A DNA stretch of 64,000 nucleotides from assembly GCA_031270475.1 (NCBI GenBank), contig JAISXO010000018.1, forward strand, positions 105 through 64,104. Direction: 5' to 3'. Below the pieces are notes generated by a model that was not told the DNA's origin, ran no database searches, and saw only the letters and a list, made by a program, of their open reading frames with translations. Position numbers and translations under genes: made by a program. This document shows, one piece after another, positions 6,157 to 60,953 of this stretch. Origin of the DNA: Puniceicoccales bacterium (GTDB lineage: Bacteria > Verrucomicrobiota > Verrucomicrobiia > Opitutales > LL51). Every line of letters begins with the position of its first letter. Position 1 is the first letter of the stretch.

Positions 6157-8643
<2,487 letters not shown>

Positions 8644-8670
8644 AAGTGAAGTGTAGAAGCGGGATTTTTT

Positions 8671-8737
8671 ACGCGATGCTCGCCCATCCCTCACATCCCT
8701 AGCCTTGCCGTATTTTTCATCATTGTCAAGCATTCCT
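8671..8737 (+). repeat. C-rich extragenic element, copy A (about 30 nt after the gyrB stop)
   Basis: GCGATGCTCGCCCATCCCTCACATCCCTAGCCTTGCCGTATTTTTCATCATTGTCAAGCATTCC aligns with copies at 10679, 26115 and 52585. Confidence 0.55.
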
Positions 8738-8894
8738 TTACATCAGAATAGCACTTCGATACTAATTATTATTTGTTGAAAATTGGCATTTATTGGTATT
8801 TGTTTACGAAATAGGCCAACTAAAAAATTCGAAGCCATATTTTATTTTATTTTTATTGTTTTTTGGAAATCCGTAGCTATAATGCGGGAAGTCT

Positions 8895-10628
8895 ATGTCT
8901 ACAAATTTATTGGCAATCGTCGCAGTACTTCCCATTTTAGTGGCCCTCGTATTAATGGTCGGATTGCGGTGGGGAGCCGCAAAAGCAATGACCATCGCCT
9001 GGTTAACCTGCGCGCTCGCTGCCGTATTCGTTTGGAACCTCCCATTACTCTACGTCTCAGCCCTCAGTTTGCAGGGAGTGATTAACGCGGCAAGTGTCCT
9101 CATTATCGTCTTTGGAGCCCTGCTTCTCCTCCATACACTACAATATTCCGGCGCAATGGAAACCATCCAGTACGGCATGCGAAATATCAGTAAAGACATG
9201 CGCGTCCAAGCCATTATCATCGGCTACATGTTTAGCGCTTTCGTCGAAGGAGCAGCCGGCTTTGGAACTCCAGCGGCATTGGCAGCTCCATTACTCCTGG
9301 CCCTTGGATTTCCTCCATTGGCGGCAGCTATCCTCTGCCTAACCTTGAACTCCTTTCCCGTCACCTTCGGTGCCGTCGGTACCCCTATTATTACGGGTTT
9401 CGGTGCCTCCTTACAAGCTCTCATTGAACGGGCGGTCGCCCAAGGAATTTTCCAATCCAATGGCCACTTTTTTGAAGTTATCGGACAGGTCGTCACCTTC
9501 ATGCATGTTCCAATGATTTTTATTCTTCCCATCTTTACCTTGGGATTTATTACCCGCTTTTTTGGTCCTAACCGCTCCTGGAAAGACGGTTTCGCCGCCT
9601 GGAAATTTTGTATCTTCGCCGCCGTGGCTTTTTCTATCCCATACCTATTCGTCGCATGGTTCATAGGCCCCGAAATTCCTTCCATTGCCGGAGGATTAAT
9701 CGGATTATTGATTATCATGGTTGGCGCTCGATATGGATTTTGTATCCCTAAAGAAGTGTGGACCTTTGGAGAACCTTCTAAATGGGAAAAAAATTGGTCC
9801 GGAAATATAACTTTCAATGCCAATAATGAGCTTAAACCGCAAATGAGTCAGTTCATGGCCTGGCTGCCCTATATACTAATCGGTATCATTCTCGTATTCA
9901 CCCGCATTGATATTTTGCCCCTAAAAGAACTGTTCAATCGGCATGGAGTTATTCTCTTCAAGGATATCTTAGGCTACAAAGATGTAAACGAAGGAAGCCT
10001 TAAATTGCTCTATCTGCCAGGAACAATTCCCTTTATGCTCATTTCTATTTTAACGATTTTCATACACCGAATCCCCCCCGGAAAAGCCGTCAAAGCATGG
10101 ATCGAAACCTTTTCAAAAATGAAAACGGCAACAATTTCCCTCTGCGCATCGGTGGCTTTAGTCAAGATTTTTCAGGGCTCTGGAAATTTTACTAATCCGG
10201 ATTTAATCGCCCAGCTGGCAGCGGATGGCGTCGATACCCAGATTTTATCCATGCCGCGGGCTATGGCCGAAGCAATCGCTGGTATCATGGGCCCAATCTG
10301 GCCACTGTTTGCACCCTATGTGGGCGGCCTTGGAGCCGTTATTACTGGCTCTAATACCGTCTCCAATATCCTTTTCGCTCAATTTCAATGGGATGTAGCA
10401 GAATTACAAAAACTTTCTCGAATCGTTATCCTCGCCGCTCAGGGTGCAGGCGGAGCCATGGGACATATGATTTGTGTCCACAATATCGTAGCCGTATGTG
10501 CCGTTCTAGGCCTATCAAACCTGGAAGGAGATATTATCAAAAAAACTTTCTGGCCATTCCTGCTCTACGGCCTCTCTGTCGGTATCGTGGCTTATATCCT
10601 CATCACCATCGGCTACTCTACGTTTTAA
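8895..10628 (+). CDS. L-lactate/glycolate permease (LctP family)
   Basis: 577 aa polytopic membrane protein. [59 protein letters not shown] matches the conserved LldP/GlcA core. Confidence 0.85.
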
Positions 10629-10678
10629 AAAAAGTAAATAAACTACTTTTTTTACATTCGGCAGAAAATTTCAAATAC

Positions 10679-10743
10679 ACTTCCGTGCCTTCCCCTACAC
10701 CTCCTGGCTTTGTCGCCTTTCTTTTCACTGTCAAGCATTTTTT
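10679..10743 (+). repeat. C-rich extragenic element, copy B (about 50 nt after the permease stop)
   Basis: ACTTCCGTGCCTTCCCCTACACCTCCTGGCTTTGTCGCCTTTCTTTTCACTGTCAAGCATTTTTT has the same architecture as the other copies and the same TGTCAAGCATTTTTT end. Confidence 0.5.
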
Positions 10744-10857
10744 GTCATATCAATGATCATCAATCGAAAAAATCTCCACATAGCATATAAAATAAATGAT
10801 CAATTGTGATATTGACGTTGAAAGCGACGCTGGAATTATCTTAATATCTTCCATAGC

Positions 10858-13296
10858 ATGCAAGATACTCAAGAAAAAGTTATTCCAACTAATATTACTG
10901 ATGTGATGCAGCGATCCTATATCGATTACTCCATGTCAGTGATCGTCAGCCGTGCCCTACCGGATGTGCGTGATGGCCTCAAACCGGTCCAACGCCGCGT
11001 CCTTTACGCTATGTTACGCGAAGGATTGCTCAGCTCTCGCCCTTTCGATAAATGCGCCGGCATCGTGGGAGAAGTTCTGAAAAATTATCACCCCCATGGC
11101 GACTCTTCCGTCTACGAAACACTCGTCCGCCTCGGTCAGCACTGGGTCATGCGCTATCCACTGATCACTCCACAGGGAAATTTTGGCTCTATCGATGGCG
11201 ATCTTCCCGCAGCTTACCGCTACACGGAATGTAAATTGGAAAAAATTTCAGAAGAAATCCTTCGCGATATCGATGAAGCAACGGTCGATTTTCAACCCAA
11301 TTATAAGGAAAGCACCGTCGAACCCACCGTGTTACCTGCCGCACTCCCTAATCTATTGATGAATGGCTCCACGGGAATCGCCGTTGGCATGACGACCAAT
11401 ATTCCGCCCCACAATCTCGGCGAACTCATTGACGCCCTTTGCCGCATGATCGATGATCCCTGCACAACGGTCGATGATCTGTGTGGCATCATTAAGGGAC
11501 CCGATTTTCCGACAGGCGGCTCTGTCATTGGCATTGAAAATATTCAAAAATATCTCCGCACAGGTCGTGGAATTGTCCGCAATCGCGGCGTTATCGAAGT
11601 CGAAACTCTCTCAAATGGTCGCGAACAATTAATCATTACGACGGTCCCTTATAATACCAATCGAGCGACCATTGTGACAAAAATCGCGGAACTAATCAAC
11701 GAAAAAATTATCGACGAAGCAAGCGATCTGCGGGACGAATCCGATGAAAATACGCGCATCGTTATCGAACTCAAACGCAACGAATCGCCCCGAGTCGTTA
11801 TCAATAAATTGTTTAAATTAACACCAATGGAATCGTCCTTCGGCGTCATTCTATTGGCACTGGATAAGCGGCGGCCCAAGCAGATGAATATTAAGGAGAT
11901 GCTCGATTGCTACCTGGATCATCGTCGAGAAGTTATTTTTCGCCGTACCCAATTTCGCCTCCAAAAAGCTGAAACTCGCGCCCATATTTTGGAGGGCTAC
12001 AAAATTGCACTTGCCAATCTTGATGATTTTGTGAAAATTATTCGTCAATCTCCGAACCGCGACGCCGCAAAGATCGCGTTGTTGGCGAAATATCCCATCT
12101 CCGACCGTCAGGCAGATGCGATCCTCGAACTGCGACTCTACCAATTAACCGGATTGGAACAAAATAAAATCGATCAAGAATACATTGAGTTGATAAAAAT
12201 TATTGAAGAATATCGCCATATTTTAAATAACGAGCAGCTCCTTTTAGGCGTGGTTCGCCAGGAACTCGTCACCGTTAGGGAACTTTATACGACGCCGCGC
12301 TTAACTAAAATTTTACCTGCCGAAGACGAATTTCGAGTAGAAGATGTCATCGCCAATGAGGGCTGTATCATTACGATTACGGAAAATGGCTTCATCAAAC
12401 GCACCGAAAATGCCGCCTACCGCTCCCAAAAACGCGGAGGAAAGGGCGTAATTGGAGCTGGGCAGCGGGACGACGATACCATTACCCATCTTTTATCGGC
12501 GAGTACCCACGATTACATCATGTTCGTCATGACAAATGGGCGAATTTACATCGAAAAGGTATATGAAATTCCAGAAGGCTCACGAACTTCTAAGGGGCGT
12601 TCTCTCGTCAACATCATTGAAATGCAGGTCGAAGAAAAAATGGCGGCGATGATCTGTTTTCCAGAATTTACGGCGGAACGCTATTTAGTGATGTGTACAA
12701 AAAACGGTATTACAAAAAAAACGAATCTCAATGATTATGTCAATTATCGTCGGGGAGGGATTATTGGCATCGACGTGGACGATGGCGACCGCGTCATTGA
12801 AGCGCGCCTTTCCAATGGCCAGGATGAACTCGTTCTGATTACCCACAATGGCATGTCGATTCGTTTTAGTGAGCAGGAGTTACGCGATCAAGGTCGTGCA
12901 ACGCGTGGCGTTCGCGGCATTACTTTACATTCGGCGGACTATGTCGTTGCGATGACTATCGTCGACAATGGGGCAACATTTTTGATAGCCGCTGAAAATG
13001 GTCAAGGTAAGCGTTCTTCTTTCGAGAGTTATCGCCTACAAAAGCGCGCGGGACTGGGAGTCATTGCGATCAAGATGGCAAAAAACGTAGGTGTTGCGGC
13101 GGCATTAACAGTCAATGACAGCGACGAAGTGATGATGGTAACGGAGCGGGGACAAGCCATTCGCTCGCCGGTAAAGGACATTCGCGTCATCGGCCGCACG
13201 ACCCAGGGAGTTCGTCTGATTAATCTTGAAAAAGACGACCATCTCATCGGTGTGAGTCGCATTGTTGAAATTGATGATTCCGAGGAAAAATCATAA
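10858..13296 (+). CDS. gyrA: DNA gyrase subunit A
   Basis: 812 aa. Motifs present: DGLKPVQRRVLYAM, HPHGDSSVYETLVRL (QRDR) and AAYRYTECKL (active-site Tyr context). C-terminal beta-pinwheel repeats are present. Confidence 0.97.
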   Translation: MQDTQEKVIPTNITDVMQRSYIDYSMSVIVSRALPDVRDGLKPVQRRVLYAMLREGLLSSRPFDKCAGIVGEVLKNYHPHGDSSVYETLVRLGQHWVMRYPLITPQGNFGSIDGDLPAAYRYTECKLEKISEEILRDIDEATVDFQPNYKESTVEPTVLPAALPNLLMNGSTGIAVGMTTNIPPHNLGELIDALCRMIDDPCTTVDDLCGIIKGPDFPTGGSVIGIENIQKYLRTGRGIVRNRGVIEVETLSNGREQLIITTVPYNTNRATIVTKIAELINEKIIDEASDLRDESDENTRIVIELKRNESPRVVINKLFKLTPMESSFGVILLALDKRRPKQMNIKEMLDCYLDHRREVIFRRTQFRLQKAETRAHILEGYKIALANLDDFVKIIRQSPNRDAAKIALLAKYPISDRQADAILELRLYQLTGLEQNKIDQEYIELIKIIEEYRHILNNEQLLLGVVRQELVTVRELYTTPRLTKILPAEDEFRVEDVIANEGCIITITENGFIKRTENAAYRSQKRGGKGVIGAGQRDDDTITHLLSASTHDYIMFVMTNGRIYIEKVYEIPEGSRTSKGRSLVNIIEMQVEEKMAAMICFPEFTAERYLVMCTKNGITKKTNLNDYVNYRRGGIIGIDVDDGDRVIEARLSNGQDELVLITHNGMSIRFSEQELRDQGRATRGVRGITLHSADYVVAMTIVDNGATFLIAAENGQGKRSSFESYRLQKRAGLGVIAIKMAKNVGVAAALTVNDSDEVMMVTERGQAIRSPVKDIRVIGRTTQGVRLINLEKDDHLIGVSRIVEIDDSEEKS

Positions 13297-14131
13297 TTCA
13301 AAAATTCAATACGAATTTCATAACAACATACGAAATATTGCTGAAAATTTCATATATTCAGAAGTGTGATTTTCCTTTTGAATATGTAAATAATTTGTTA
13401 TATTAAAATGGTCAATACTTTCCCCAGGCTTCAGCGCTGTCAATCTAGATTTAAGCCTACGATCATTGGATTTGAACTCCATCTTTGAATATATTTTTAC
13501 AATATCTCAATCTCTATTTCTTGCAGCCGCTTTCAAAGTTAAAATAAGGATCTTCCTCCCTTGTTTTGCCGGAATTATTCTCACCTAATTACATTGGCAC
13601 ACGCGATTCTTAACTTTCAGGAAAGGCTTTGAAATTTTTTCCAGCCTATCAAGATAATATTTTTTTCCTTTCCTCCGCAGGAATTTCTTTTGCCTGAGCC
13701 CAGGCTGTATCCCCTATCGTCTTTAGCGTCAATATTGGGTTTTCTTCTAATATTATATCTAACACATCCGAAGATAGAGAGTGTTTCGATTTGAGTATTT
13801 GAAAAAAAGCAACAAACGCTCTATTGAAAGCAAGATTTGTACTCAGAAAAAAATCTCTATATCGAAAATCATTCTTTTCAATCCCTAAAATAGAACATTG
13901 ACACACATTTTTATCATTTTTCATTCAAGATACAAATGGGATCACAGCCATACATGGCAAAAATTAACAGTAAACAAACTGAAACACAATTTATACAATT
14001 AAATATTTTTTACCATAGGCGGCATACTTTTCCTGAAAAATATTTTATCACAATTTTATATTATCACGTAAATAATCCACAAATTTATTTATTTTTATTT
14101 ATCACACCAGAACAACTTTCGCATAATTTAT

Positions 14132-16353: not shown

Positions 16354-17700
16354 TTACTCCATCAGTTTCACCAAGTATATGCGAGGCCACCGAATCTCTA
16401 TTGGTTTACTCTCGACCGAATCTTTTCTTGGAGATCCAAATGGATTCTTACGCTTTGGACTCGGCTCCGGAGTTTTCGATGAGGTATCCGACGTACTTGC
16501 AAGCATGGCTGCTTCTGAACTTTTGGTCGTTTCCGATGGCTGCAACTCCGATAGCTGGGGCTCCGACGACCGGGGATCGATTAATTTCTCCAGTATTTTG
16601 TCATAGACCGCTTTTGCTAAAGCATATCCCGGTCCCTGCAAAGCTAAAACGCTAGGCAAACTATTACTTCCAAGCCTCTGGAACTCGCGAAGCGCCGCTT
16701 GCTTATCTCCTCCCGTTGCCCCTGTTACCCAAGCCAATGTACTTGCAAACTCCATAAATACTCTATTTTTTTCACTATCTGACTGATCACGCCCTATAGC
16801 CTCTAAAAAAATCTTCCCCTGTTCTGCTGGCTCTTCGCTCGCATACAGAGCATCTACTAGTCGATCTCTATCCGTATCCGTGATCTGAGTCTGCTGCTCT
16901 TTTGCACGCTCACGTACCATACGATCCATGACCCACATAACGGCCACAAGCTGGCTGTGTATTACCCCATTAGGATCGGGATTATCGGCACAAACATCGT
17001 CATCCTCCATCCAATCTTTTGCTTTCGGTAGTGGTAACTCATGAAGTTTTGTCAAGTTTTGATATACACAATCACCCTTGGCTTCTAAAATGTTTAAAAG
17101 GGCACTCCGATCATTATTATTGACAACCACTTGCCAATCATCTCGAAACGCCACTACAAATGGTATTAAGTCTTCCGTCAACTTTAATAAGTATAACTCC
17201 TCCTGCTCAGCTTCGGATATCTCCTCCTTCGCGAGTATTTTATCCTCAACTTGCTTAAGCATTCGCTTCATCGGTTGTTTTTTTATATCATCCGGAAGCT
17301 TCTTGCCTCCCGGATTCCAATCTACCCTCCCTGTAACAACTTGACAAAGCTGAACTATGCGGGAAAAATTCAAACTGGAATCGTTTTGTATATCCCATAA
17401 AACAGAAGCTATCTTTTCCACGTTGACTTTAGTGCCATCGGCAAACTCAAGAAATCCCCCTTGAACACCTTGGTGACTAAAATTCTGCACATCGTCAGCG
17501 TCCCATTGCACAAGCTGCACGAGTTGCCGTTGATCCGGATTTGCCGGAACTTCATTTTGTTGGGCTTGCTTTGACGAAGATATTCCATCTGGAACTGACG
17601 GCTGATCCTCATCAGTTGCTAATAACTCTGCGCTACAAGTACATAATAAAGCCAAAGCTAATAACACAATTCCATTTTGAGATTTATCACTCTTATCCAT
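16354..17700 (-). CDS. Hypothetical secreted protein, next gene downstream of sctU
   Basis: Starts at MDKSDKSQNGIVLLALALLCTCSAELLA (signal-peptide-like) and is preceded by GGAGAAGG. Has a Ser/Pro/Glu-rich C-terminal tail. No recognisable domain. Confidence 0.5.
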   Translation of the reverse strand: MDKSDKSQNGIVLLALALLCTCSAELLATDEDQPSVPDGISSSKQAQQNEVPANPDQRQLVQLVQWDADDVQNFSHQGVQGGFLEFADGTKVNVEKIASVLWDIQNDSSLNFSRIVQLCQVVTGRVDWNPGGKKLPDDIKKQPMKRMLKQVEDKILAKEEISEAEQEELYLLKLTEDLIPFVVAFRDDWQVVVNNNDRSALLNILEAKGDCVYQNLTKLHELPLPKAKDWMEDDDVCADNPDPNGVIHSQLVAVMWVMDRMVRERAKEQQTQITDTDRDRLVDALYASEEPAEQGKIFLEAIGRDQSDSEKNRVFMEFASTLAWVTGATGGDKQAALREFQRLGSNSLPSVLALQGPGYALAKAVYDKILEKLIDPRSSEPQLSELQPSETTKSSEAAMLASTSDTSSKTPEPSPKRKNPFGSPRKDSVESKPIEIRWPRIYLVKLME

Positions 17701-17846
17701 AGTGAAAACCTTCTCCAAAAAAAAACTACCTGTCAAGTTTTTTTTCGTTACTTTTTATAGTGAAAATTTTTTTATCTAATATTAAAACAATTCCCGATCA
17801 TTTTAATATGCTAAACCACATTTTTGAAAACTTCTTCAACACTTAA

Positions 17847-18926
17847 TCAGTTGAAAACCGCATTTTCTCGGGCTCGCTCGTCTTTGATATCCTTGACCCA
17901 ACGCAAAACTTCTGCAACCGGTGCCATTAAATCCCTCGGAATGTATTCCATGACGCCCGCCGTATCCAATAGCGCGTGTGCTAAAGGTACATTGCGCATA
18001 ATCGGTATCCCTTCCTTTTCCGCAACAGCTATCATTTGTTCCGCAATGATGCCAACTCCTTTCGCAATCACAATCGGTAGGGGAAAGACGGGGCGCTCAA
18101 AATCGTAGAGTAATGCAATTGCGACATGCTCCGGATTCGTGACTAAAGCCGAAGCCTGTTTTGTCTTTTGAGGGGGATCCTCTTCCATCATTTCTTTGTG
18201 AATTTGTTTGCGTTTACTCTTAACCTGCCCATCGCCCTCGGATTCCTTATACTCCCTTTTGACTTCATCTTTACTCATCTTAAGCCCCTCTTTCCACTTG
18301 TATTTCTGATAGGCATAGTCGAGAGCCGCCATTGCAATGTATGCAAAAATGACCATCTTTGCGAAATTAGTCATAATAGGGCCAAGAATACTCAATACAC
18401 CGGATAACTTGCAAAACGGTAATAAAATTAAATCGTCAAATACATCTTTTACAACACCGACCAACAGGAAGCCCAAAAAAATGATTTTTACCGTTGACTT
18501 CAGCAGTTCGACGAGACTTTTCATGGAAAACATCTGCTGCGCCTTTGACATGGGATTAATTTTACTGAGATCGGGCTGTATCGTTTTCGATGTAAATAGG
18601 ATCCCAACCTGTGCAAAATTTCCAATGAGTCCCATGAGTGCTACCACGAAAATCGCTGGGAAAACAATGCCTCCCGTCTTCATCAAAACACTCCAAAGCG
18701 CCTGACCAGTATACCCCCCCAGATCATTACATCGCCCAATAAATTGGGTAGGGATCAAAATCATCTCTGAAATATTCTCTAAATGTTGATTCCAGCCCAA
18801 TCCAACATAACAAAATGCACCGATTAAAGTAAGCGTCGAATTGACGTCCTGACTCTTCGCAATATTTCCTTTATTGCGCGCGTCACGTATACGTTTCGGT
18901 GTTGGATCTTCGGTTTTTTCGCTCAT
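17847..18926 (-). CDS. sctU: Type III secretion export-apparatus switch protein (SctU/FlhB family)
   Basis: 359 aa. Motifs present: N-terminal EKTEDPTPKRIRDARNKGNIAKSQD, four TM segments, MSKDEVKREYKESEGDGQVKSKRKQ, an autocleavage-site variant NPEH, and a C-terminal GIPIMRNVPLAHAL. Confidence 0.9.
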   Translation of the reverse strand: MSEKTEDPTPKRIRDARNKGNIAKSQDVNSTLTLIGAFCYVGLGWNQHLENISEMILIPTQFIGRCNDLGGYTGQALWSVLMKTGGIVFPAIFVVALMGLIGNFAQVGILFTSKTIQPDLSKINPMSKAQQMFSMKSLVELLKSTVKIIFLGFLLVGVVKDVFDDLILLPFCKLSGVLSILGPIMTNFAKMVIFAYIAMAALDYAYQKYKWKEGLKMSKDEVKREYKESEGDGQVKSKRKQIHKEMMEEDPPQKTKQASALVTNPEHVAIALLYDFERPVFPLPIVIAKGVGIIAEQMIAVAEKEGIPIMRNVPLAHALLDTAGVMEYIPRDLMAPVAEVLRWVKDIKDERARENAVFN

Positions 18927-18957
18927 TTATCCCATTCCTTTCACTTGCTATCGCTCC

Positions 18958-19746
18958 CTATTTTAAGAAATGATTAACAAAAAACGACATTTTACTTTGC
19001 GTGAAAAAATAGTAATGGAACAGTTTTCCCAGCAACGAATAATAAAATAGTAAAAAAAACATCGATAGCCAGCTTTTAACCGGCATTGCCATAAAAAACA
19101 CATTTAATTGTGGTGCAAAACGACTGATCATTCCCAAGCCAAACTCCGCAAGAAATAATACGATTAAAATCGGTGCTGAAAAGCAAAAAACGGACTCCAT
19201 AATCTCATCCGCAAACGACATCATAAATGCCGGGAAATTGACGTCAAATGTAGGGAAAAATGTAAATACAGGCCACATAATATAGGACTTATAAATCACG
19301 CCGAGGAAAAATAAAAATCCCCCCATCGAAAAAAACAGCGTTGCAATCATCTGAGTCAAAAAGCTTCCCAAAAGCGATGTCTGCGAACCAACAACGGGAT
19401 CAAATGTCATGGCCTGCGACGACCCTCTCTGAATATCAATAATGAATCCAACACTATCCGTAATATAAAAAATAAATCCCGATAAATAACCCAACATGGC
19501 CCCCAGGATAACCTCCTTGCAGATCGTTACGAAGATAATAAGCACCGGAATCTGTACCGTTGGTAACGTCGGATACACGGCATGGAAAAGGGGTAAGGCC
19601 ATGGCAAAAATGATGACATTGCGTCCCGTCCCCATGATGTATTGCTTGGCAAATACCGGCGTTAATGACAACGCTGCCGCCAAACGTATGATACACATCA
19701 TCATTAAAAATAAAACTGATGTTACTTCCTCTAGTCCCGCTCCCAT
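18958..19746 (-). CDS. sctT: Type III secretion export-gate protein (SctT/FliR family)
   Basis: 262 aa polytopic membrane protein between sctS and sctU. Its start overlaps the sctS stop (ATGA). FliR/YscT-like hydrophobic pattern. Confidence 0.85.
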   Translation of the reverse strand: MGAGLEEVTSVLFLMMMCIIRLAAALSLTPVFAKQYIMGTGRNVIIFAMALPLFHAVYPTLPTVQIPVLIIFVTICKEVILGAMLGYLSGFIFYITDSVGFIIDIQRGSSQAMTFDPVVGSQTSLLGSFLTQMIATLFFSMGGFLFFLGVIYKSYIMWPVFTFFPTFDVNFPAFMMSFADEIMESVFCFSAPILIVLFLAEFGLGMISRFAPQLNVFFMAMPVKSWLSMFFLLFYYSLLGKLFHYYFFTQSKMSFFVNHFLK

Positions 19747-20015
19747 TAATGAATAATCGTTGGAAAATTGGTAAACAGGCTATTGGCAAACGCGAGTAAC
19801 TCATCGCCGATCCAATAGGCCGATAGCATCAAAACCGTAACAGTAAAGAATAGTTTGATGGCAAATCCCAATGTTTGTTCTTGAATCTGGGTAAGGGCTT
19901 GTAACAAGCTCGTTATCAATCCCACACACGTCGCCACTAAAATGGGCGGCATCGATAACATGAGAATGAGTATCATTGCCTGCTCCGTGATACTAATGAT
20001 AAAATTCTGATCCAT
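19746..20015 (-). CDS. sctS: Type III secretion export-gate protein (SctS/FliQ family)
   Basis: LLQALTQIQEQTLGFAIKLFF is the SctS/FliQ signature. The internal Met (MDQNFIIS) gives the usual ~89 aa length; the track ORF extends to 20042. Confidence 0.85.
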   Translation of the reverse strand: MDQNFIISITEQAMILILMLSMPPILVATCVGLITSLLQALTQIQEQTLGFAIKLFFTVTVLMLSAYWIGDELLAFANSLFTNFPTIIH

Positions 20016-20070
20016 ACGCCTAGCCATTGTTTTTTTAGTCAAATTTTCGCAAATAGCAAGCCCTTAAACT

Positions 20071-20955
20071 TCAACGACTGGCAATAAAAAAACGGTCAAA
20101 TCGATTCAAGTCTTTCAAAACTTCCGTTTGCTTAAAATATTTTCCGTATACTTTTTGGAGTTGTTGGGCATGAGAAATACCCGTTTCAATAGCAATAATG
20201 CCATTTTTTTTGAGAAACTTTTGGGCTCCATCGAGAATAATTCTAATATCCTGGAGACCCTCTTCTTCGGCAATTAACGCCGAAATAGGCTCGTAGCGAC
20301 GTATTTCATCCTGGATCCCATCAAATTCCTGGCGTGTCAAGTAGGGTGGATTGGAGACAATGAGGTCAAATTGCTCCCGCCATTTATCACCTTCGAAAGC
20401 ACTGTACCAATCCGATTGGAAGAATTGCAAGTTATTCACACCATTTCGCCGCATATTTTCGCGGACGACCTCCAACGCCAATGGTGATCGATCGACAGCA
20501 AATACGCAACTCTTCGGGAAATGTTTTGCCAAAGCAATCGCAATAGCACCGCTCCCCGTTCCCAGGTCCAAAATATTCAAGGATGAAAAATTCCCCCCAA
20601 TAGAAAAGGCATTCCCAATGCGTTTACTAGTATTATTTATAAGCCATTCGACAAGTATTTCCGTTTCTCCGCGCGGAATAAAGACGCGGGAATCAACCAT
20701 CAAGTTTACATCATAAAAATCAACTTCGCCCAAAATATATTGCAATGGTTCTCGCTGGGCACGCCGCACCAATAACTCCAAAAATTGTATTTCCGATTCT
20801 TTACTGACCGTTGTTTGGCCCTGTAATGTTAACTCAAGCCGTGAACATCCCAAAACATGGGCCAATAACCATTCCGCATCGTTCTTTGAGCCCTCGACAT
20901 TGTCAGAGCATAAAAAACTTGTCCCTTCTGCGAGCAATTCAATAATCGACGCCAT
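20071..20955 (-). CDS. prmC: Release-factor glutamine N5-methyltransferase (PrmC/HemK)
   Basis: Motifs present: EPLQYILGEVDFY, ILDLGTGSGAIAIALA (SAM site) and LIVSNPPYL (NPPY). Confidence 0.9.
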   Translation of the reverse strand: MASIIELLAEGTSFLCSDNVEGSKNDAEWLLAHVLGCSRLELTLQGQTTVSKESEIQFLELLVRRAQREPLQYILGEVDFYDVNLMVDSRVFIPRGETEILVEWLINNTSKRIGNAFSIGGNFSSLNILDLGTGSGAIAIALAKHFPKSCVFAVDRSPLALEVVRENMRRNGVNNLQFFQSDWYSAFEGDKWREQFDLIVSNPPYLTRQEFDGIQDEIRRYEPISALIAEEEGLQDIRIILDGAQKFLKKNGIIAIETGISHAQQLQKVYGKYFKQTEVLKDLNRFDRFFIASR

Positions 20956-20963
20956 AGACCGCG

Positions 20964-21338
20964 TTACCGAAGATAGGGCGTTTCCCGCATTGCAACATCA
21001 TTTTCACTGGTTCGTTGATTGTTTTTCCAACGAACTAAATTCTCATTTTGGAACTTATCCTTATTGTCCCTATGGGACGGCCGCAATGCCCCGAGCGATG
21101 TGATAGAATTGGGAGAAATACCCACGAGAAATTTTTGTCCATTGCACTGGATAATGGCAACGTAATGGCGTCCGCCAACGGATAGACGCTCGGTTACGCA
21201 CAGATGGTCGGGATGGGAGCGATCGCCATTGGGCACCTGCGGAAAAAACCAACCCTTCCTGCGAAAAAGTACGAAAAAATATCCGCCCAACGCAAGAAGA
21301 ACAATAAAAACTACCGACTTAACAACCTCTTCAAGCAT
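20964..21338 (-). CDS. FliO-like small membrane protein
   Basis: 124 aa with a single N-terminal TM (VVFIVLLALGGYFFVLF). This is followed by LCVTERLSVGGRHYVAIIQCNGQKFLVGISPNSITSLGAL, which parallels E. coli FliO LKISASASLGARERVVVVDVEDARLVLGVTAGQINLL. By-eye similarity only. Confidence 0.45.
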   Translation of the reverse strand: MLEEVVKSVVFIVLLALGGYFFVLFRRKGWFFPQVPNGDRSHPDHLCVTERLSVGGRHYVAIIQCNGQKFLVGISPNSITSLGALRPSHRDNKDKFQNENLVRWKNNQRTSENDVAMRETPYLR

Positions 21339-22633: not shown

Positions 22634-24352
22634 TTACATCCTATTCACCCGCCTGAAACCCGTTCCGGGAGGAGGCTTACTAGGAGAACCATCAGCATTC
22701 CGCACTGCCCTTTGTTCAAGGGGTGGTGGCGTTTTAAGGACGCGAGTCGGGTGTTCTTCTGACTGGGACGCTGTTCCTCCCACAGGAAGACGATAAGCAG
22801 ACGATAAATTTCTATCAAGGAGCCACTGACGAGAAACCGACCCTTTGCGGCTCAGAGAATCCGACGCATCATCCGACTGGGACGTAGAATCATCCACATC
22901 CGACGAGGACGTAGAATCACCCAGAAAGGTCACCCGCCCCGACTTCCGTGGCGTCTTCACATGTCCTAGTTTGGTACTACAATCTGCCACAACTGTTGTT
23001 ACTTTATTATTACGCTCCAGGAAATGCTGTAATAACGATAGCAAGCCAAGCTTTCCTGTTGTTGCTGGCTTTACTGTTGTTGCTGGCTTTACTGCTTCAG
23101 GTGGAAAGGGTTTGCCGACGAGAAATTCTCTTTCCTCGGGAGTAACCTCTCCACTCTTTGCTAACAAAGACAATTTACCCCATAGACTTACTACGTCACC
23201 ATAGGAACGCGTATCAATACCCTTGAAATTAGGGAAATCCCTTGCTGTTCCTCCCTTAAAACCCAACGTTCCGAAGATATCGTCAGAGAATAATGTATCC
23301 TCGAATAGCGCTGTTAAGTTTTGACTTAGGAAAACATGGTATGTTCTCAATGTATACATATTTGTTAATGGAGGACTATCATAAACTTCAATCTCGGTCT
23401 CGATCAAATAATTCCCATCTGCCTTATCCTTGAATTCTATCGCAGGAAGACTATAATCGGCACTGAAACTTGTTCCATTTGGCTGTTTTACCCAGCCTTG
23501 GCTAGCCAAAACCGATAGGGCTTTTCCTTTCTGTTCATTCCCCTCTCCCTTCACAGTCATGGGATAGAAGTCCTTGATTTTATTAGAATAGTCCCTGTTC
23601 TGAGTAAAGATGTCATTGGCAACGCCTAAACCAGAAAACTTGATCGTTTCTTCAGCCTCCATCGGAAAATCCACCCTATCGCAACAAAATTTAACCTGAG
23701 CTTTGACGCTACTATCATCTTTCAATACTCCGGAGGGAATCATTGTGGGAGAAATGAGTAAAAAACGTCTCCTATTGGGATTGTGGCGATAAATCACTAT
23801 ACTAAAACCCGTTTTGAGATCATGAGAAATGCTAGGACAACTGATGGCAGCCAATATATTTCCGTAGAGATTTAAAACCTCACTGCCATTCTTAGCCTTT
23901 ACATCCTCCACCGTTGCAACCGACTTATCAGCAGGTTTTTTCCCGGGATACCAATAAAATTCTTTATCCGCAGAATGTGCCGGCACGAATATCGGCATTA
24001 CTGGCATCCAATATCTTTCCTCGCTTTTTTTCGAATTCGCATCATAACTCTTTCCGTCGGCAGCGAGCTTATAAAACCACAACGGTTGAACTCCTCTCTT
24101 TCCCCTAACAGTAGGATCAGCCGAAGCAGAGGTAAAAATAGTCGCTTCTCCCTTCTTCTTAGGAAGCTCCGCTTTCTGGAAATTAAGCGAAGCATCCACC
24201 TGAAAAACCAGAGATCTCTTGTTTTTGACGGTGTTCTTTCCTATTTTTGTTCCATCGGGCACCTCAAAGCTCACACTATCCCAGGCATTTGATAAAAGGG
24301 GTGTCATTAGAAACATCCCACTCAATAACTTATTTATAATTTTATAATCCAT
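22634..24352 (-). CDS. Hypothetical secreted protein
   Basis: 572 aa. N-terminus MDYKIINKLLSGMFLMTPLLSNAWDS is signal-like. The C-terminal third is low-complexity (Ser/Asp/Pro rich) and includes KPATTVKPATTG, encoded by an 18-bp x2 repeat at 23058-23093. No recognisable domain. Confidence 0.5.
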   Translation of the reverse strand: MDYKIINKLLSGMFLMTPLLSNAWDSVSFEVPDGTKIGKNTVKNKRSLVFQVDASLNFQKAELPKKKGEATIFTSASADPTVRGKRGVQPLWFYKLAADGKSYDANSKKSEERYWMPVMPIFVPAHSADKEFYWYPGKKPADKSVATVEDVKAKNGSEVLNLYGNILAAISCPSISHDLKTGFSIVIYRHNPNRRRFLLISPTMIPSGVLKDDSSVKAQVKFCCDRVDFPMEAEETIKFSGLGVANDIFTQNRDYSNKIKDFYPMTVKGEGNEQKGKALSVLASQGWVKQPNGTSFSADYSLPAIEFKDKADGNYLIETEIEVYDSPPLTNMYTLRTYHVFLSQNLTALFEDTLFSDDIFGTLGFKGGTARDFPNFKGIDTRSYGDVVSLWGKLSLLAKSGEVTPEEREFLVGKPFPPEAVKPATTVKPATTGKLGLLSLLQHFLERNNKVTTVVADCSTKLGHVKTPRKSGRVTFLGDSTSSSDVDDSTSQSDDASDSLSRKGSVSRQWLLDRNLSSAYRLPVGGTASQSEEHPTRVLKTPPPLEQRAVRNADGSPSKPPPGTGFRRVNRM

Positions 24353-24532: not shown

Positions 24533-26068
24533 ATGATTAGCAAACTTCTCGAGCAAATTCGTCGAGATATTTTTTCAACGGAACTTGCGATGACTAAAAA
24601 AAATGTCGGCACTATCCTCTCCATTGCTGATGGCGTCGCCCTTCTCAATGGCCTCTCCGAAGTCATGTATAATGAAATGATCGACTTCGGTAATGATACC
24701 TTTGGTGTCGCCCTAAACCTCGAAGAAGATTTCGTCGGCGTCGTCATCCTCGGCGATTGTTCCCATCTAAAAACCGGTGACCAAGCGACCGCTACCGGGA
24801 AATTACTGTCCGTCCCCGTCGGAAAAAATCTCCTCGGCCGCGTCGTCAACGCTCTCGGCCAACCCATCGACGGTAAAAGCGCTATCACCGCCGAAGAATT
24901 CTATTCCATCGAAAAAATCGCCCCCGGAATTATGCCGCGCCAATCCGTTAACCAGCCGCTCCAAACGGGTATCCTCGCCATCGATGCCATGATTCCCATC
25001 GGCCGTGGCCAACGGGAACTCATCATCGGCGACCGCGCCACAGGAAAATCCACCATCGCCATCGATACCATTATTAATCAGGCCAAAATTAATCGGGAAG
25101 GCCTCGCTTCCGGCAATCCGGACTTTCGTCCCGTATACTCCATCTACGTCGCCATCGGACAGAAAAATTCTACCATCGCACGGACCATTAAAACACTCAC
25201 AGACCATGGAGCTATGGATTTTACGATCGTCGTCAATTCTTCCGCCGCCGATAATCCCGCGAACCAATACATCGCCCCCTACGCTGGCTGCGCCATGGGA
25301 GAATGGTTCATGCATAACGGTATGGATGCCCTCATCGTCTATGATGACCTCTCGAAACATGCGGTAGCGTATCGGCAAATTTGTCTCATTCTCAAACGCC
25401 CCTCCGGCCGAGAAGCCTATCCGGGCGATGTCTTTTACTTGCATTCCAAACTGCTCGAACGGGCCGCCCGACTCAATGCGGAAAATGGCAACGGCTCTCT
25501 TACTGCATTACCTATTATCGAAACCCAGGCCGGTGATGTGTCAGCATATATCCCGACAAATGTTATTTCAATCACCGATGGACAAATTTTTCTCGATACG
25601 GATCTTTTTAATAGAGGTGTACGACCAGCGATCTCGATTGGGATTTCCGTCTCCCGAGTGGGCTCCACCGCTCAAATGAAGGCGCTTAAACAGGTGGCAG
25701 GAAAATTGAAACTCGAATTAGGCCAGTACTACGAACTGAGCTCTTTTGCGCAATTTGGCTCCGATCTGGACGCCAAAACACAGCAACAACTCGACCGCGG
25801 CGCCCGCATTGTGGCCCTATTTCGACAGCCAGCTAATGCCCCACGAAGCCTTTTAGACCAGATTCTTGTGCTTTGGGCAATTAAAACAGGCATTTTCGAT
25901 ACCATAGCCCTCGACCATATCAATACCGCAGCGGAATCTTTACTCACCTATTTTGCAACCGCCGGTATGCAAGTTTTAATGCAAATTACCCAAAAAGGCC
26001 AATTGACAGAAGAAATCGAAGGACATCTTATGGAAATTGTTACCGATTGGCAAAAAACACAGGCGTAA
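24533..26068 (+). CDS. atpA: F1-type ATP synthase alpha subunit (stand-alone)
   Basis: 511 aa, colinear by eye with E. coli AtpA. Motifs present: [63 protein letters not shown] and [29 protein letters not shown]. No other atp gene flanks it. Confidence 0.9.
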
Positions 26069-26114
26069 ACAATATTAATAAAGCGTAAAAATTCGTCGAT
26101 GCTCAAAATTTTGA

Positions 26115-26182
26115 CGTGCCGCTTGCTCCCACCCTCTACCCTTCAGCCTTGCCACCCTTTCCACGGCTGTCAAGTATTTTTT
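26115..26182 (+). repeat. C-rich extragenic element, copy C (about 45 nt after the atpA stop)
   Basis: GTGCCGCTTGCTCCCACCCTCTACCCTTCAGCCTTGCCACCCTTTCCACGGCTGTCAAGTATTTTTT. This copy is closest to copy D. Confidence 0.6.
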
Positions 26183-26267
26183 GAAAAATGTAAATTCAAT
26201 CCTCATCTGTGCTCGTTAAAAAATATTTGTTGCTTGAAATTTTCCTTTCCTTAGAAAGCTTTTTTTT

Positions 26268-38032: not shown

Positions 38033-38061
38033 TTGACAAGGCCAAGTGACGCTGCTATTTC
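38033..38061 (+). promoter_or_regulatory. Putative sigma70-type promoter of rpsT
   Basis: TTGACA (38033-38038), a 17-nt spacer, then TATTTC (38056-38061). An AAGGAG RBS sits at 38081-38086 before the ATG at 38094. Confidence 0.4.
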
Positions 38062-38093
38062 TTTTCCCATAATTTAATTTAAGGAGAAATAGG

Positions 38094-38345
38094 ATGGCTA
38101 ACAATAAAGCGTCGTTGAAGAGTATTAAGCAAACGGGTAGGCGTACGGAAAGGAATCGTATGATTATCAGTCGGCTGCGGACACAGTTTAAGAAGGTGAT
38201 GGCACTCGCTAAAAGCGGTGATAGTGCCGTTCGAGAAGCAGCAATTGAGTATGTTTCATACTTGGATAAGGCAGCGAAGGTTTGCGTCATCCATCATAAT
38301 AAGGCTTCGCGTCATAAGAGCATGATGGCTAAGTTTATATTTTAA
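38094..38345 (+). CDS. rpsT: 30S ribosomal protein S20
   Basis: 83 aa. MANNKASLKSIKQTGRRTERNRMIISRLRT...AKVCVIHHNKASRHKS. Confidence 0.92.
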   Translation: MANNKASLKSIKQTGRRTERNRMIISRLRTQFKKVMALAKSGDSAVREAAIEYVSYLDKAAKVCVIHHNKASRHKSMMAKFIF

Positions 38346-51458: not shown

Positions 51459-52529
51459 ATGGCAATAATTCCAGAATTCTTAAGAGATCTCATGATCGCA
51501 CGTTCACCCTCCGGTCATGAATTCGAAGCGCAAAAAGTAATCGATCGCTACATGGCAAATGCCGTCGACGAATATCGAAAAGATACGATCGGTAACCGTT
51601 TCGCAACCCTTAAAACCAATGATCAAAACCCGATGCTTATGCTCTCCGGTCATATGGATGAACTCGGCTTTTCCATCACCTACATCGATGAAAAGGGGTT
51701 CCTTTCATTCGATACGATCGGCGGCCATGATCGGAGTATTATTCCTGGACGTCGTGTCAGAATTTTATCCCAAAAGGGCGACGTATTCGGCATCACCGGT
51801 AAACGCGCGATCCATCTCCTCGATGACGATGAAGAAAATAAGGTCCCAAAAATTCACGAACTATGGATCGATATCGGTGTAAAATCTGAAGAAGAAGCGA
51901 AAAAACTCGTACGCATCGGCGATCCAGTTATTTATGAAACTCCTGAAACAGTTGCTCTTAACGATACGAGTAACATTACGGGACGAGCATTCGATGATAA
52001 AGCGGGAGCTTACGTCGTTATGGAGGTCATGCGTCGGCTTATCAGCGAGCGGCATTCTTTGAATTGCAATGTAACTTCAGTTGCCTCGGTCCAGGAAGAA
52101 GTCGGTTTGCGCGGCGCAATTAACGCATCCTATTCCTGTATGCCTACCGTTGGAATCGCAGTTGACGTCGGCCATGCAACCGATTTTCCGGACTGCAGTA
52201 ATAAACGATTTTCAAAGGTCGAGCTCGGCGGAGGCCCCATGATTACGCGAGGTGTCAATATTAATCCAATTATTTTTGATCGCATCATTGAGTGCGCCGA
52301 AAAAGAAAATATTCCCTATCAAATCGATGCAGATACGCGGCCAACGGGAACCGATGCGCGCCCCATGCAAGTTACACGCGGAGGAGTGCCAACGGGCCTC
52401 ATTTCGATCCCCTTGCGCTATATGCATACTCCCGTTGAAATGGCTAATCTCGACGATATTGAAAATGTTATTCGCCTGATCTGTGCCTTTGCGCACACGC
52501 TAAAACCGGAAGACCACTTCGAGTTCTAG
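51459..52529 (+). CDS. M42 family aminopeptidase (FrvX/CelM-like)
   Basis: ARSPSGHEFEAQKVI, MLSGHMDELGF, ITGRAFDDKAGAYVVMEV and SVQEEVGLRGA. Confidence 0.8.
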   Translation: MAIIPEFLRDLMIARSPSGHEFEAQKVIDRYMANAVDEYRKDTIGNRFATLKTNDQNPMLMLSGHMDELGFSITYIDEKGFLSFDTIGGHDRSIIPGRRVRILSQKGDVFGITGKRAIHLLDDDEENKVPKIHELWIDIGVKSEEEAKKLVRIGDPVIYETPETVALNDTSNITGRAFDDKAGAYVVMEVMRRLISERHSLNCNVTSVASVQEEVGLRGAINASYSCMPTVGIAVDVGHATDFPDCSNKRFSKVELGGGPMITRGVNINPIIFDRIIECAEKENIPYQIDADTRPTGTDARPMQVTRGGVPTGLISIPLRYMHTPVEMANLDDIENVIRLICAFAHTLKPEDHFEF

Positions 52530-52584
52530 AAAAACTTCGGCAAAATGCCAAAAAAATATTAAAAATAGCGCGCCGGAGTTCAAA

Positions 52585-52654
52585 TGCGCCGCTTGCTCCC
52601 TCCCCTATGCCATCCAGCCTTGTCATCTTTCAAAAACTTGTCAAGCTGTTTTTA
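52585..52654 (+). repeat. C-rich extragenic element, copy D (about 55 nt after the peptidase stop)
   Basis: GCGCCGCTTGCTCCCTCCCCTATGCCATCCAGCCTTGTCATCTTTCAAAAACTTGTCAAGCTGTTTTT. Confidence 0.6.
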
Positions 52655-52677
52655 AAATTATCGAACAAATCATCACC

Positions 52678-59088: not shown

Positions 59089-59561
59089 GTAAAAGTAATC
59101 GGAGTAGTATGGGACCCATGTTCCATTCTTGCGAAGGTTAAGAATGGAAGTGGTGTATTTTTAGGGAAGGAATATGTTCTTTGAAGGGGTTTACATATAT
59201 TCCTACTTTAATTGGAAGGTCCTTTTCCCTTACCTAAATCGGCTCTCATTGCTTCACTCCAATACTGTTCTTCTATATTAAGTGATCTCTCCCATTTTTC
59301 CGCTATATCTTGGCCCCAGCACAATATTGCCTGGCAACTTTTTTGCACGATATATATACCACATAGACCTATCAAGATAGTCCATACTCTAACTGTTTTT
59401 ATTGACTTTTCCATAATTTTGAAATTTCTACTAAGCTCATTTAGAAAAAACATTTGTCAAGCTTTTTTTGATATTTTTTCAAGTTTTTTCATAATTCAAT
59501 TTAACCGGCATGAGAAAACCTCTTACCTTATCGAATATAATGACAAAAATAAAGTACTGGG

Positions 59562-59633
<72 letters not shown>

Positions 59634-59864
59634 CTGCCCCCATGCCAAGAAATTTTCCTCAATTTTCAAGTGTTTATTCAATTTTCATCCACTTTCCCAA
59701 TCATCTTACTTTCGCCAAATCATCATAAAAAAACGGCAATAAGGCCTGCTGTGAAATTTTCGCTACGAACAGGGCCTATTACCATCGAATTTCTTTCCAC
59801 CACAACGAACAATCGGAAATAAATTATCAATTTTCCGCTAAACTATTGTGATTTACTCGCCAAA

Positions 59865-60953
59865 TTAGAAAATATCGGCAAATAACGTTTCCTCATTTAT
59901 CATTTCATCGGACCAGAGTGATCCATCCGTGGCCATCCGCGATAGATAACTTATAAAAATTACAAATATAAAGTTTTCCTCTCGTTTTCCATGTAGATTC
60001 GGCCATAATCGCAATACTTGTCTCAACTCATCTGGAGAAAGAATTTCCCGAACGCGGCCAAATATCTGATGGCATTCATCGATCATCTTCTTCTCGCCAT
60101 CACCGGCCTCGTGGTTTCTTCCAGAAATGAATGCTCCAATTGTTGCAATAAAACCTGATAGCTTTTTGTCTATAAGTTTTGCTACGTCTTTCGCAACAGC
60201 TGGAACTACCAGCCCCGGAGCGAAGCCTTCAGCTTGTCCTGTGGACATTTGAGCAATTATCTGCGATCGAAATTGAGATATATTCTCATTGGGCAATTGG
60301 GCAACTATTCGTTCAACTTTTGTTCGCAGCGCATCATTTATTCCGGATGCCTCATACCGTTGGTATGAATCCTCGGAATCTTCGGAATCCTCGGAATCCT
60401 CAACCTCTCGTCGTGAACTGCCAACCCTACGCCGTTGGTATAGGGCATTGGGATCCTCAATCTCTCGCTGTAAATCCGTAATTTGTTGCCGCAAAGCCTG
60501 ATTTTCTTTTTTAAGATCATCATTCTGTAAGCGGAAGTTCATGGCCGCATCCTGACCTTCTCCCCATTTGAGTGCCGTTTGGGCCTCTTGCTCTTTAAGT
60601 CGCCTCTGTAATCGTTGATTTTCATTTTCCAGCTCTGAGATTCGCTTTTGCAATGCCGCACAACTATCTCTGTATTTTCCAAATACGGGCTCCAAACTTT
60701 TCTTTAAAGCATCATAGAAAGCGAATGGCTTCGCTATTACTTTACGCCCATCGATTACTTTATCTTCTGTGTCGAGAATATCTCGGATGTTTTTTCGGAT
60801 AACATCTAAAACTTCTCTCTCCAGGAAAGAATCCTCCAAGCGAACACAACTGGATTGGGCATTTTCCTGACTAGATCCCCAAACAGAGCTATTCACATAT
60901 AAAAAACCTGTACATATAAGCACACATCTCAACGTATCGTTATTTTTTTTCAT
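59865..60953 (-). CDS. Hypothetical secreted coiled-coil protein
   Basis: 362 aa. Signal-like MKKNNDTLRCVLICTGFLYVNSSVWG, long heptad-like Gln/Glu/Arg-rich segments, and EDSEDSEDSEDS from a 9-bp repeat near 60370-60400. Confidence 0.5.
   Translation of the reverse strand: MKKNNDTLRCVLICTGFLYVNSSVWGSSQENAQSSCVRLEDSFLEREVLDVIRKNIRDILDTEDKVIDGRKVIAKPFAFYDALKKSLEPVFGKYRDSCAALQKRISELENENQRLQRRLKEQEAQTALKWGEGQDAAMNFRLQNDDLKKENQALRQQITDLQREIEDPNALYQRRRVGSSRREVEDSEDSEDSEDSYQRYEASGINDALRTKVERIVAQLPNENISQFRSQIIAQMSTGQAEGFAPGLVVPAVAKDVAKLIDKKLSGFIATIGAFISGRNHEAGDGEKKMIDECHQIFGRVREILSPDELRQVLRLWPNLHGKREENFIFVIFISYLSRMATDGSLWSDEMINEETLFADIF

Follow-up and report, generated by a model that had tools for sequence, protein, structure and literature searches.

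The stretch of 64,000 nucleotides (nt) analysed here, called the window below, comes from contig JAISXO010000018.1 of a Puniceicoccales bacterium (Verrucomicrobiota). It contains four short C-rich elements, each lying just behind a protein-coding gene of the plus strand: gyrB (copy A), the L-lactate permease gene lctP (copy B), atpA (copy C, the focal one) and an M42 peptidase gene (copy D). They had been pointed out in a sequence-only reading, and all four were found at the coordinates reported there, about 90 nt being alignable with a mean column identity of 69%. Position and orientation were likewise borne out: every copy lies 28-56 nt past the stop codon of its upstream gene, the C-rich strand is the sense strand, and neither strand of the copies gives a strong hairpin or a significant fold, as had been described. 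Other details had to be given up. The string GCCGCTTGCTCCC, thought to be shared by all four copies, is present only in C and D, and the proposed GCTTG...CAAGC pairing is not conserved, since one relative (relatives are denoted by L numbers throughout), L022, has AGCCTTA at this site, with 2 bp left.

It was recognized that the minus strand of the elements has the shape of a promoter. In all four copies the same parts follow each other in the same order without gaps: an A-tract, CTTGACA, 17 nt, the hexamer AAGGCT (AAAGCC in copy B), 9 nt, AGGG and a G-rich tail. The 9 nt between the hexamer and (A)GGG are purine-rich with a pyrimidine-purine step at positions 7/8, and the conserved G-rich, C-poor segment which follows has the consensus (R)AGGG-N-GGGRGCRAGC; G makes up 56% and C 7% of the antisense strand over the 23 nt past the hexamer, and over 45 nt the sense strand is 40% C and 14% G, in agreement with the C-rich, G-poor character first noticed. 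The 3' motif TGTCAAGCATTTTT, which had been considered conserved, is the reverse complement of AAAAATGCTTGACA, that is, of the A-tract together with a perfect -35 hexamer. A promoter had been discarded in the sequence-only reading, because copy D has no co-oriented gene downstream; this holds for the plus strand only, while the minus strand carries the promoter-shaped pattern.

The focal cassette occupies positions 26087-26186 of the minus strand. Its UP-like A-tract (26175-26183) and its -35 hexamer TTGACA (26168-26173) span 26168-26183, the hexamer AAGGCT at the -10 position (26145-26150) stands exactly 17 nt past TTGACA, and the predicted transcript start (about 26137, at the pyrimidine-purine step 7/8 nt past the hexamer) opens the conserved G-rich block AGAGGGTGGGAGCAAGCGGCACG at 26115-26137. 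A weak hairpin, CGTC...GACG followed by AATTTTT, with the T5 run on the antisense strand, can be read from the sequence at 26087-26116, before the atpA stop codon (26066-26068). Copy A (minus strand, 8659-8741) has its -35 hexamer at 8724-8729, AAGGCT at 8701-8706 and the G-block at 8671-8694; in copy B (minus strand, 10665-10746) the corresponding parts are found at 10729-10734, 10706-10711 (AAAGCC) and about 10678-10698, and in copy D (minus strand, 52571-52657), which lies between the M42 gene and a convergent gene of a T2SSE-type ATPase, at 52639-52644, 52616-52621 (AAGGCT) and 52585-52608.

The window was searched, with filters off, by a sequence-only covariance model (R2) built from 13 copies of other genomes only, which avoids circularity. 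Exactly four sites were recovered in the 64 kb with 30-72 bits and E-values from 2e-8 to 1e-21: copy C with 72.4 bits (E 1.3e-21, 26102-26186), copy A with 55.0 bits (8659-8738), copy D with 54.8 bits (52573-52656) and copy B with 30.2 bits (E 2e-8, 10691-10744). The next-best match reached 9.6 bits and was confined to the A-tract/TTGACA part of the model. The fifth copy suspected after gyrA (13418-13446) was matched by neither this nor the other covariance model at E<=10; because its minus strand reads TTGACA-6 nt-AAGCCT-GGGG, the site can at best be a remnant from whose spacer 11 nt have been deleted.

Further copies were collected from related genomes. Scanning representative genomes for CTTGACA-N14-GRCAARGCY-N9-AGGG yielded 12 matches, 5 of them unrelated chance matches and 7 clearly homologous; the latter all come from termite-gut metagenome-assembled genomes (MAGs) named Puniceicoccales bacterium, two standing after gyrB (orthologues of copy A, in L002 and L012) and five after the phosphoglucomutase gene pgm. 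A metagenome scan with a related strict pattern returned two chance matches only, both inside coding regions, and the plasmid collection gave no match to the element. Syntenic loci were then fetched through atpA and M42 homologues and scanned with the covariance model, which added orthologues of copy C after atpA in L015, L016 and L022 (atpA 86-88% identical), orthologues of copy D after M42 in L023 and L025, a diverged orthologue of copy B after lctP in L002 (3954-4029) and a new locus after a gene with a BFN domain in L025. In the more distant relatives L017-L021 (atpA 76-83% identical) no copy was found in about 100 kb, and the intergenic regions there are short. Altogether 17 copies are known at six gene ends (gyrB, lctP, atpA, M42, pgm, BFN), all in related Puniceicoccales MAGs, and the copy number is low (4 in the window, 1-2 strict matches per MAG).

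Two observations concern the gene order around these copies. In the gyrB-gyrA interval of the window (6163-13296), as in L002 and L012, the lactate permease gene lies between the two gyrase genes and is flanked on both sides by a copy of the element; in L020 (1-3836) gyrB and gyrA are 7 nt apart, without the permease and without the elements. The atpA gene (24533-26068 in the window, syntenic in L015-L022) stands alone, away from the other ATP synthase genes, and its neighbours, a divergent gene of unknown product on one side and a small open reading frame (ORF) with a fabH-like gene on the other, are kept in all the fetched relatives.

The comparison of the copies reveals where the sequence is constrained and where it is free. 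The 14 tabulated copies can be aligned without gaps from TTGACA to the (A)GGG block, and the three later ones keep the 17-nt distance of the hexamers, the G-block being shifted by 1-2 nt in two of them (the M42 copies of L023 and L025). The information per position amounts to 2.0 bits in the -35 hexamer, 0.65 bits in the spacer, 1.65 bits in the second hexamer, 0.84 bits in the next 9 nt and 2.0 bits in AGGG. TTGACA is invariant in 17 of 17 copies and the spacer is 17 nt long in every one. The second hexamer occurs as AAGGCT, AAAGCT, AATGCT, AAAGCC and GAGAGT (AAAGCT and AATGCT being those of the copy D orthologues in L023 and L025), always with A at position 2 and, in all copies but B, with T at position 6. 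The pyrimidine-purine step is found 7/8 nt past the hexamer, or 6/7 nt in four copies, and an UP-like A-tract stands at -38 to -46 in most of them. The atpA orthologues are the most instructive: their spacers (GCCGTGGAAAGGGTGGC in the window, ATAGGGCGAGGGCTTTT in L022, GCCCGCCGGGATCGTCC in L016 and ACAATAAATTTCCATTC in L015) are essentially random relative to one another, and TTGACA, AAGGCT and the 17-nt length are unchanged. After AAGGCT these orthologues have GAAGGGTAGAGGGTGGGAGC, nearly identical in three and close in the fourth, so that about 25 nt are almost unchanged; L016 and L022 have the block AGAGGGTGGGAGCAAGCGGCACG itself in nearly identical form, L015 in a close one. Since the spacer sequences have been randomised and the two hexamers and the G-block have not, at an evolutionary distance where neutral sites are saturated, purifying selection has to be assumed. 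Comparison at the sequence level thus demonstrates a promoter-shaped minus-strand element followed by a conserved G-rich segment, kept by purifying selection at orthologous gene ends.

Two invariant hexamers held at a fixed distance by a spacer free to vary, with an A-tract upstream, form the pattern to be expected of a minus-strand promoter of the sigma-70 type, but not of a rut (Rho-utilisation) site or a REP-like repeat; the conserved block beyond the hexamers would then be the start of the transcript. We therefore consider it moderately probable that each element is a compact transcription unit opposite its upstream gene, namely a convergent gene of a small non-coding RNA. One degraded locus is of interest here. 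In the M42/T2SSE intergenic region of L024 (3095-3272) the -35 hexamer and the spacer are deleted and the G-block has decayed, and the flanks are still alignable with a flanking U-rich tract kept; this single case suggests that the G-block is retained only while the promoter is intact.

The A-tract/TTGACA portion is not restricted to the family. The module aaaaaaNNCTTGACA was also found upstream of window genes, i.e. rpsT (38033, plus strand) and minus-strand genes starting at 60953, about 59420 and 17700, and both covariance models match these gene-promoter sites only over the A-tract/TTGACA portion. This bears on the alternative in which the element is a Rho-utilisation (rut) site, where C-rich, G-poor, unstructured sense RNA behind the stop codon would recruit Rho and end the transcription of the upstream gene. 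The composition fits (over its 23-nt core the sense strand has 56% C and 7% G, and in the variable 9 nt of 14 copies G occupies 3 of the 126 positions), the copies are co-oriented with the upstream gene in five of five tandem contexts, and most of them have no sense-strand hairpin followed by a U-run. As the antisense block is G-rich, the sense transcript has this composition in any case, and it may have a rut or 3'-end role. However, a rut site needs composition, not invariant hexamers 17 nt apart with a free spacer. Furthermore, the C-rich block extends over 25-45 nt only, shorter than the typical 60-80 nt or so, TGTCAAG and the T-run are accounted for by the promoter module that also stands at other sites of this genome, the element is missing behind atpA in close relatives whose intergenic regions are still short, and a terminator-like hairpin already precedes the element in B. 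On balance a plain rut site is unlikely.

The G-rich RNA and a C-rich rut site on the other strand are not mutually exclusive, and they could be combined in a two-strand punctuation of gene ends, in which a strong antisense promoter and a G-rich RNA, by pairing or R-loop formation, act opposite a C-rich rut-like mRNA 3' end. Loading of Rho on the sense transcript would thus be due to the same 70 bp, and the level of the antisense RNA would tune stop versus read-through into the next gene, e.g. along gyrB>lctP>gyrA. Such a self-contained terminator/antiterminator module on two strands is undescribed so far; we hold this combination to be slightly less likely than the rut site taken alone.

Beyond the G-block the minus strand runs for 39-103 nt (189 nt in L016) to the stop codon of the convergent gene and never contains a gene; a small ORF or leaderless peptide after the hexamer was ruled out, starts and frames not being conserved among the copies. 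T5 runs of the antisense strand between the G-block and the stop codon are present in 12 of 14 copies and A5 runs (T-runs of the sense strand) in 3 of 14, where the counted interval includes 15 nt beyond the stop codon and some of the T-runs fall there. A hairpin with a U-run is evident in B, D, L005, L012, L015 and L025. Copy D has two of them on the minus strand within 52525-52593, each followed by a T-run: the first, AGCGGCGC..GCGCGCT+ATTTTT, covers 52561-52593, and the second (52535-52553, then TTTTT) is also in the list of the terminator scan as 52553-52535, minus strand, its G·U stem pairs existing only on the minus strand. Several hairpins of the family likewise use G·U pairs which are available on the antisense strand only. 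In the M42 group the hairpin sequence differs from genome to genome and the U-rich tract TTTCTAATATTTTT is conserved in L023, L024 and L025.

No intrinsic terminator (hairpin with a U-run) was found on the sense strand at any copy; the sole sense-competent one, an A7-hairpin-T7 at 10627-10653 right after the lctP stop codon, lies upstream of the element, between lctP and copy B, and folds in both orientations. It looks like a bidirectional terminator, which would end lctP transcripts before the element and the antisense RNA about 75 nt from its start. Because of this U7-run hairpin, the lctP sense mRNA need not contain copy B at all. The lack of a 3' terminator hairpin on the sense strand also bears on the idea that the elements encode a C-rich sense small RNA derived from the 3' untranslated region (3'UTR), whose CCC seeds would pair with Shine-Dalgarno sequences in the manner of RsaE/RoxS. 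The sense strand does offer CCCUC/CUCCC directly past the stop codons and, in B, ACCUCCU, which resembles an anti-Shine-Dalgarno sequence. Against this, the consensus pairing comprises only 4-6 invariant bp with -1.24 kcal/mol in total (folding term -0.94) and is lost in L022, the T-runs are mostly on the opposite strand, and the hexamers at fixed distance would be left unexplained; we regard a sense small RNA as very unlikely.

The promoter signature would be identical if the element were a promoter-like roadblock or insulator, at which the strong UP/-35 portion, the GC-rich -10 and the G-rich start hold RNA polymerase (or an R-loop is formed by the G-rich transcript), polymerases of the sense strand being stopped head-on at the gene end and the RNA itself having no role. 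Such a function would agree with the facts that the element always faces the 3' end of a gene, that G3 clusters directly follow the predicted start and that intrinsic terminators of the sense strand are scarce. But conservation runs 25-40 nt into the transcribed region, and further in the atpA group, which occupancy alone would not need, and the antisense hairpins with T-runs suggest the release of a defined RNA. This explanation is improbable, somewhat more so than the rut site.

A binding site of a DNA-binding regulator controlling the neighbouring sense genes could be imagined on the basis of the imperfect inverted repeat CTTGNCA-N13-TGNCAAG seen in most copies. Its left arm is lost in L015, L016 and L022, where TTGACA and AAGGCT stay, and for this reason the inverted repeat, or hairpin, was rejected as the conserved unit. 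Moreover, copy D and the pgm copies of L008 and L023 have no downstream co-oriented gene, and the gene after copy C has a promoter of its own, conserved in L019, which is without the element. Of all the explanations considered, we assign the lowest probability to a regulator site.

The family could also be a selfish or relic repeat of low copy number, i.e. a mobile promoter-bearing fragment spread by duplication or gene conversion and devoid of present function. The subtypes do not track the loci (C, after atpA, resembles the pgm copy of L005, and A, after gyrB, that of L023), presence and absence differ among close genomes (L019, L024), and there is the possible relic after gyrA. On the other side stand the lack of terminal repeats, of a palindrome and of a target duplication, the low number of copies (4 per 64 kb, 1-2 strict matches per MAG), and the orthologous copies kept at the same gene ends by purifying selection though neutral sites are saturated. 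A functionless repeat is thus almost as improbable as the sense small RNA, its probability being only a shade higher. The earlier suggestion of a repeat of the REP (repetitive extragenic palindromic) type is contradicted by the missing palindrome and the low copy number; on the same grounds (no palindrome, no terminal inverted repeats, 4 copies per 64 kb) REP/BIME (bacterial interspersed mosaic element) sequences and miniature inverted-repeat transposable elements were rejected. Integron attC sites were dismissed as well, as R''/R' cores (RYYYAAC ... GTTRRRY) are missing and only CTTG/CAAG is complementary, a feature lost in L022. Inspection of the four window copies by eye found the GG/GC spacing of sigma-54 (-24/-12) promoters on neither strand.

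Several observations weigh against a convergent small RNA gene. The first group concerns the promoter. AAGGCT agrees with TATAAT in 2 of 6 positions, A-11 and T-7 only, which are the two -10 bases flipped out on melting and most needed by sigma-70, and a consensus promoter scan of the window did not list the element sites. Ordinary -10 boxes are present at other sites of the window, namely TATAAT ahead of the gene at 22634-24352 and GCTATTWC, shared by three genomes, ahead of rpsT. Since AAGGCT is non-consensus and such ordinary boxes exist, the invariant A1, G4 and C5 need a further reason, and sigma-70 alone leaves their invariance unexplained; candidate reasons are a second constraint on RNA or DNA, the kinetics of a GC-rich -10/discriminator region, or another sigma factor. 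The second group concerns the product. A, L002 and L016 have weak terminators or none, and a strict terminator scan lists one in D only. When all copies are taken together, neither strand shows a conserved secondary structure or any covariation: RNAalifold gives -0.13 kcal/mol for the antisense and -1.24 kcal/mol for the sense strand with no compensatory pairs, and a mini-hairpin GCGA-NNN-UCGC is limited to the gyrB and pgm subtypes. Finally, no convincing trans target came out of a search of the window, and the C-rich strand is the sense strand in all five tandem contexts (gyrB>lctP, lctP>gyrA, atpA>ORF, BFN>mgsA and pgm>next, the last in L005; p ~0.03), as a 3'UTR element would also show; this orientation is predicted by a cis-antisense RNA and by a 3'UTR element alike. 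A point in favour of the antisense RNA is that, when the four orthologue groups are folded separately, the antisense strand has the lower energy in each (-4.25 vs -3.85, -9.16 vs 0, -1.46 vs 0 and -4.61 vs -0.62 kcal/mol for antisense vs sense), which with three or four sequences per group is only suggestive.

The best trans-target candidate of the window lies at 16690-16715 (plus strand), within a minus-strand gene of 448 amino acids, where the 12 nt GCGCCGCTTGCT agree exactly with the C-rich strand of copy D and are followed by a CTCCTCCC-like run. It was rejected: it is inside a coding region, on the wrong strand for pairing with that mRNA and not conserved in L015, and the match is probably due to chance.

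If the elements are convergent small RNA genes, the following course of events can be proposed. RNA polymerase would start at the pyrimidine-purine step and produce a non-coding RNA of 45-80 nt, the single-stranded G-rich 5' end of which would be its working part, and the variable hairpin with its U-run would end the RNA no later than at the stop codon of the convergent gene. Its most likely action would be base pairing with C-rich RNA, the first candidate target being the exactly complementary C-rich 3' untranslated end of the convergent mRNA (gyrB, lctP, atpA, M42, pgm, BFN), and the pairing would set the 3' end of this mRNA, its stability or the read-through. An action in trans as sibling small RNAs may also be considered because the paralogues have the G-block in common. 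The specific action is less certain than the existence of the transcription unit.

Among the known systems GadY of E. coli, which lies opposite the 3'UTR of gadX, is similar in being a convergent small RNA gene in the intergenic region just past a protein gene, complementary to the 3' untranslated end of the neighbour and equipped with its own sigma-70-type promoter (a predicted one in our case). The differences are that the present family comprises at least six loci with one conserved G-rich 5' sequence, that there is no sequence similarity, and that the mRNA overlap and its effect are predictions here. Sibling small RNAs, such as OmrA/B, Qrr1-5 and LhrC1-5, also come as several paralogous short genes per genome with a conserved single-stranded segment, a variable remainder and promoter elements conserved among the copies, but here the putative seed is G-rich and located at the extreme 5' end, and every copy faces the 3' end of a housekeeping gene. 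As in Rho-dependent terminators, the RNA of the sense strand past the stop codon is rich in C, poor in G and without structure; a rut site, in contrast, is a matter of composition over about 60-80 nt, and here a block of 25-45 nt lies within a promoter-shaped element of the other strand. Correia elements of Neisseria and REP/BIME sequences are also repeated intergenic sequences near gene ends and can contain promoter hexamers, whereas our elements have no inverted terminal repeats or palindromes, a very low copy number and orthologous sites under purifying selection. Promoters of the rRNA/tRNA type share the UP-like A-tract, the near-perfect -35 hexamer and the G/C-rich stretch between -10 and the start; they differ from the present ones in that the putative -10 is here AAGGCT, not TATAAT, and that the predicted product matches no Rfam family.

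The assumption that no described family matches was supported by an Rfam search, in which a scan of the whole window at the gathering thresholds gave only tRNA-Cys, and permissive scans (E<=10) around A, D and C returned sub-threshold matches only, with 7-16 bits against cut-offs of 35-144 bits. Nothing relevant was found in the literature on small RNAs or promoters of Verrucomicrobia either. The family is undescribed, low in copy number and seen only in termite-gut Verrucomicrobia genomes; its likely kind, a small RNA gene with a sigma-70-type promoter, is already well known. Non-coding RNAs and promoters of Verrucomicrobiota are almost uncharted, above all in uncultured host-associated lineages, and in this poorly known clade, whose members here are uncultured, the comparative signal is clean. 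The family offers a putative promoter cleanly defined by comparative genomics (UP element and TTGACA, 17 bp, AAGGCT) and, at the ends of core genes of energy, carbon and DNA-topology functions (gyrB, atpA, pgm, lctP), a candidate for a multicopy small RNA. Should it be transcribed, no small RNA family would have been proposed for the clade before it, and selection would be seen to maintain a -10 far from the consensus. A sequence that looks like a 3'UTR element can, in general, turn out to be a gene of the opposite strand.

Some further promoters of the window are worth mentioning. The promoter of rpsT (38033-38112; also L017 21368 and L018 21107) is made up of an A-tract with TTGACA, 15 variable nt and GCTATT(T/A)(C/A), is conserved in three genomes and is a useful reference for an ordinary promoter of this clade. 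Directly before the gene of 448 amino acids mentioned above, TTGACA-N18-AAGGTT-N6-ATG is found in the window (17701-17745, minus strand, module at 17736) and in L015 (17385-17423), where an independent gene caller puts the start codon exactly at this ATG; the protein has no Pfam match, and those of the window and L015 are 25% identical overall with similar N-termini. The gene would either be transcribed as a leaderless mRNA with AAGGTT as the -10 or have GAAGG as its ribosome-binding site, and since the latter is equally possible, its support for AAGGCT as a -10 hexamer is ambiguous. In the region 59558-59680 (minus strand) tRNA-Cys has CTTGAAA-N16-TGGCATGGGGGCAG ahead of it; the alignment of this region to the family model is weak (58 positions, 8.1 bits, E 0.19) and may reflect either a common promoter architecture or chance.

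Between the atpA stop codon and the element L016 has an insert of about 120 nt (11540-11700) with G+C-rich nested palindromes (e.g. GCTGGCCAAAAGCCAGC and GCCGGCCGTACCGGC), which has no counterpart in the window, in L015 or in L022 and could represent a small insertion element of another type. Genes for ankyrin-repeat proteins, a chaperone of the CesT type and flagellar/type III export components (FliO, Bac_export_1-3) were seen in the window (54009-56033 and 17847-21338) and in L016, L017, L019 and L024; taken with the origin from termite guts, these genes point to a life in association with a host or with protists.

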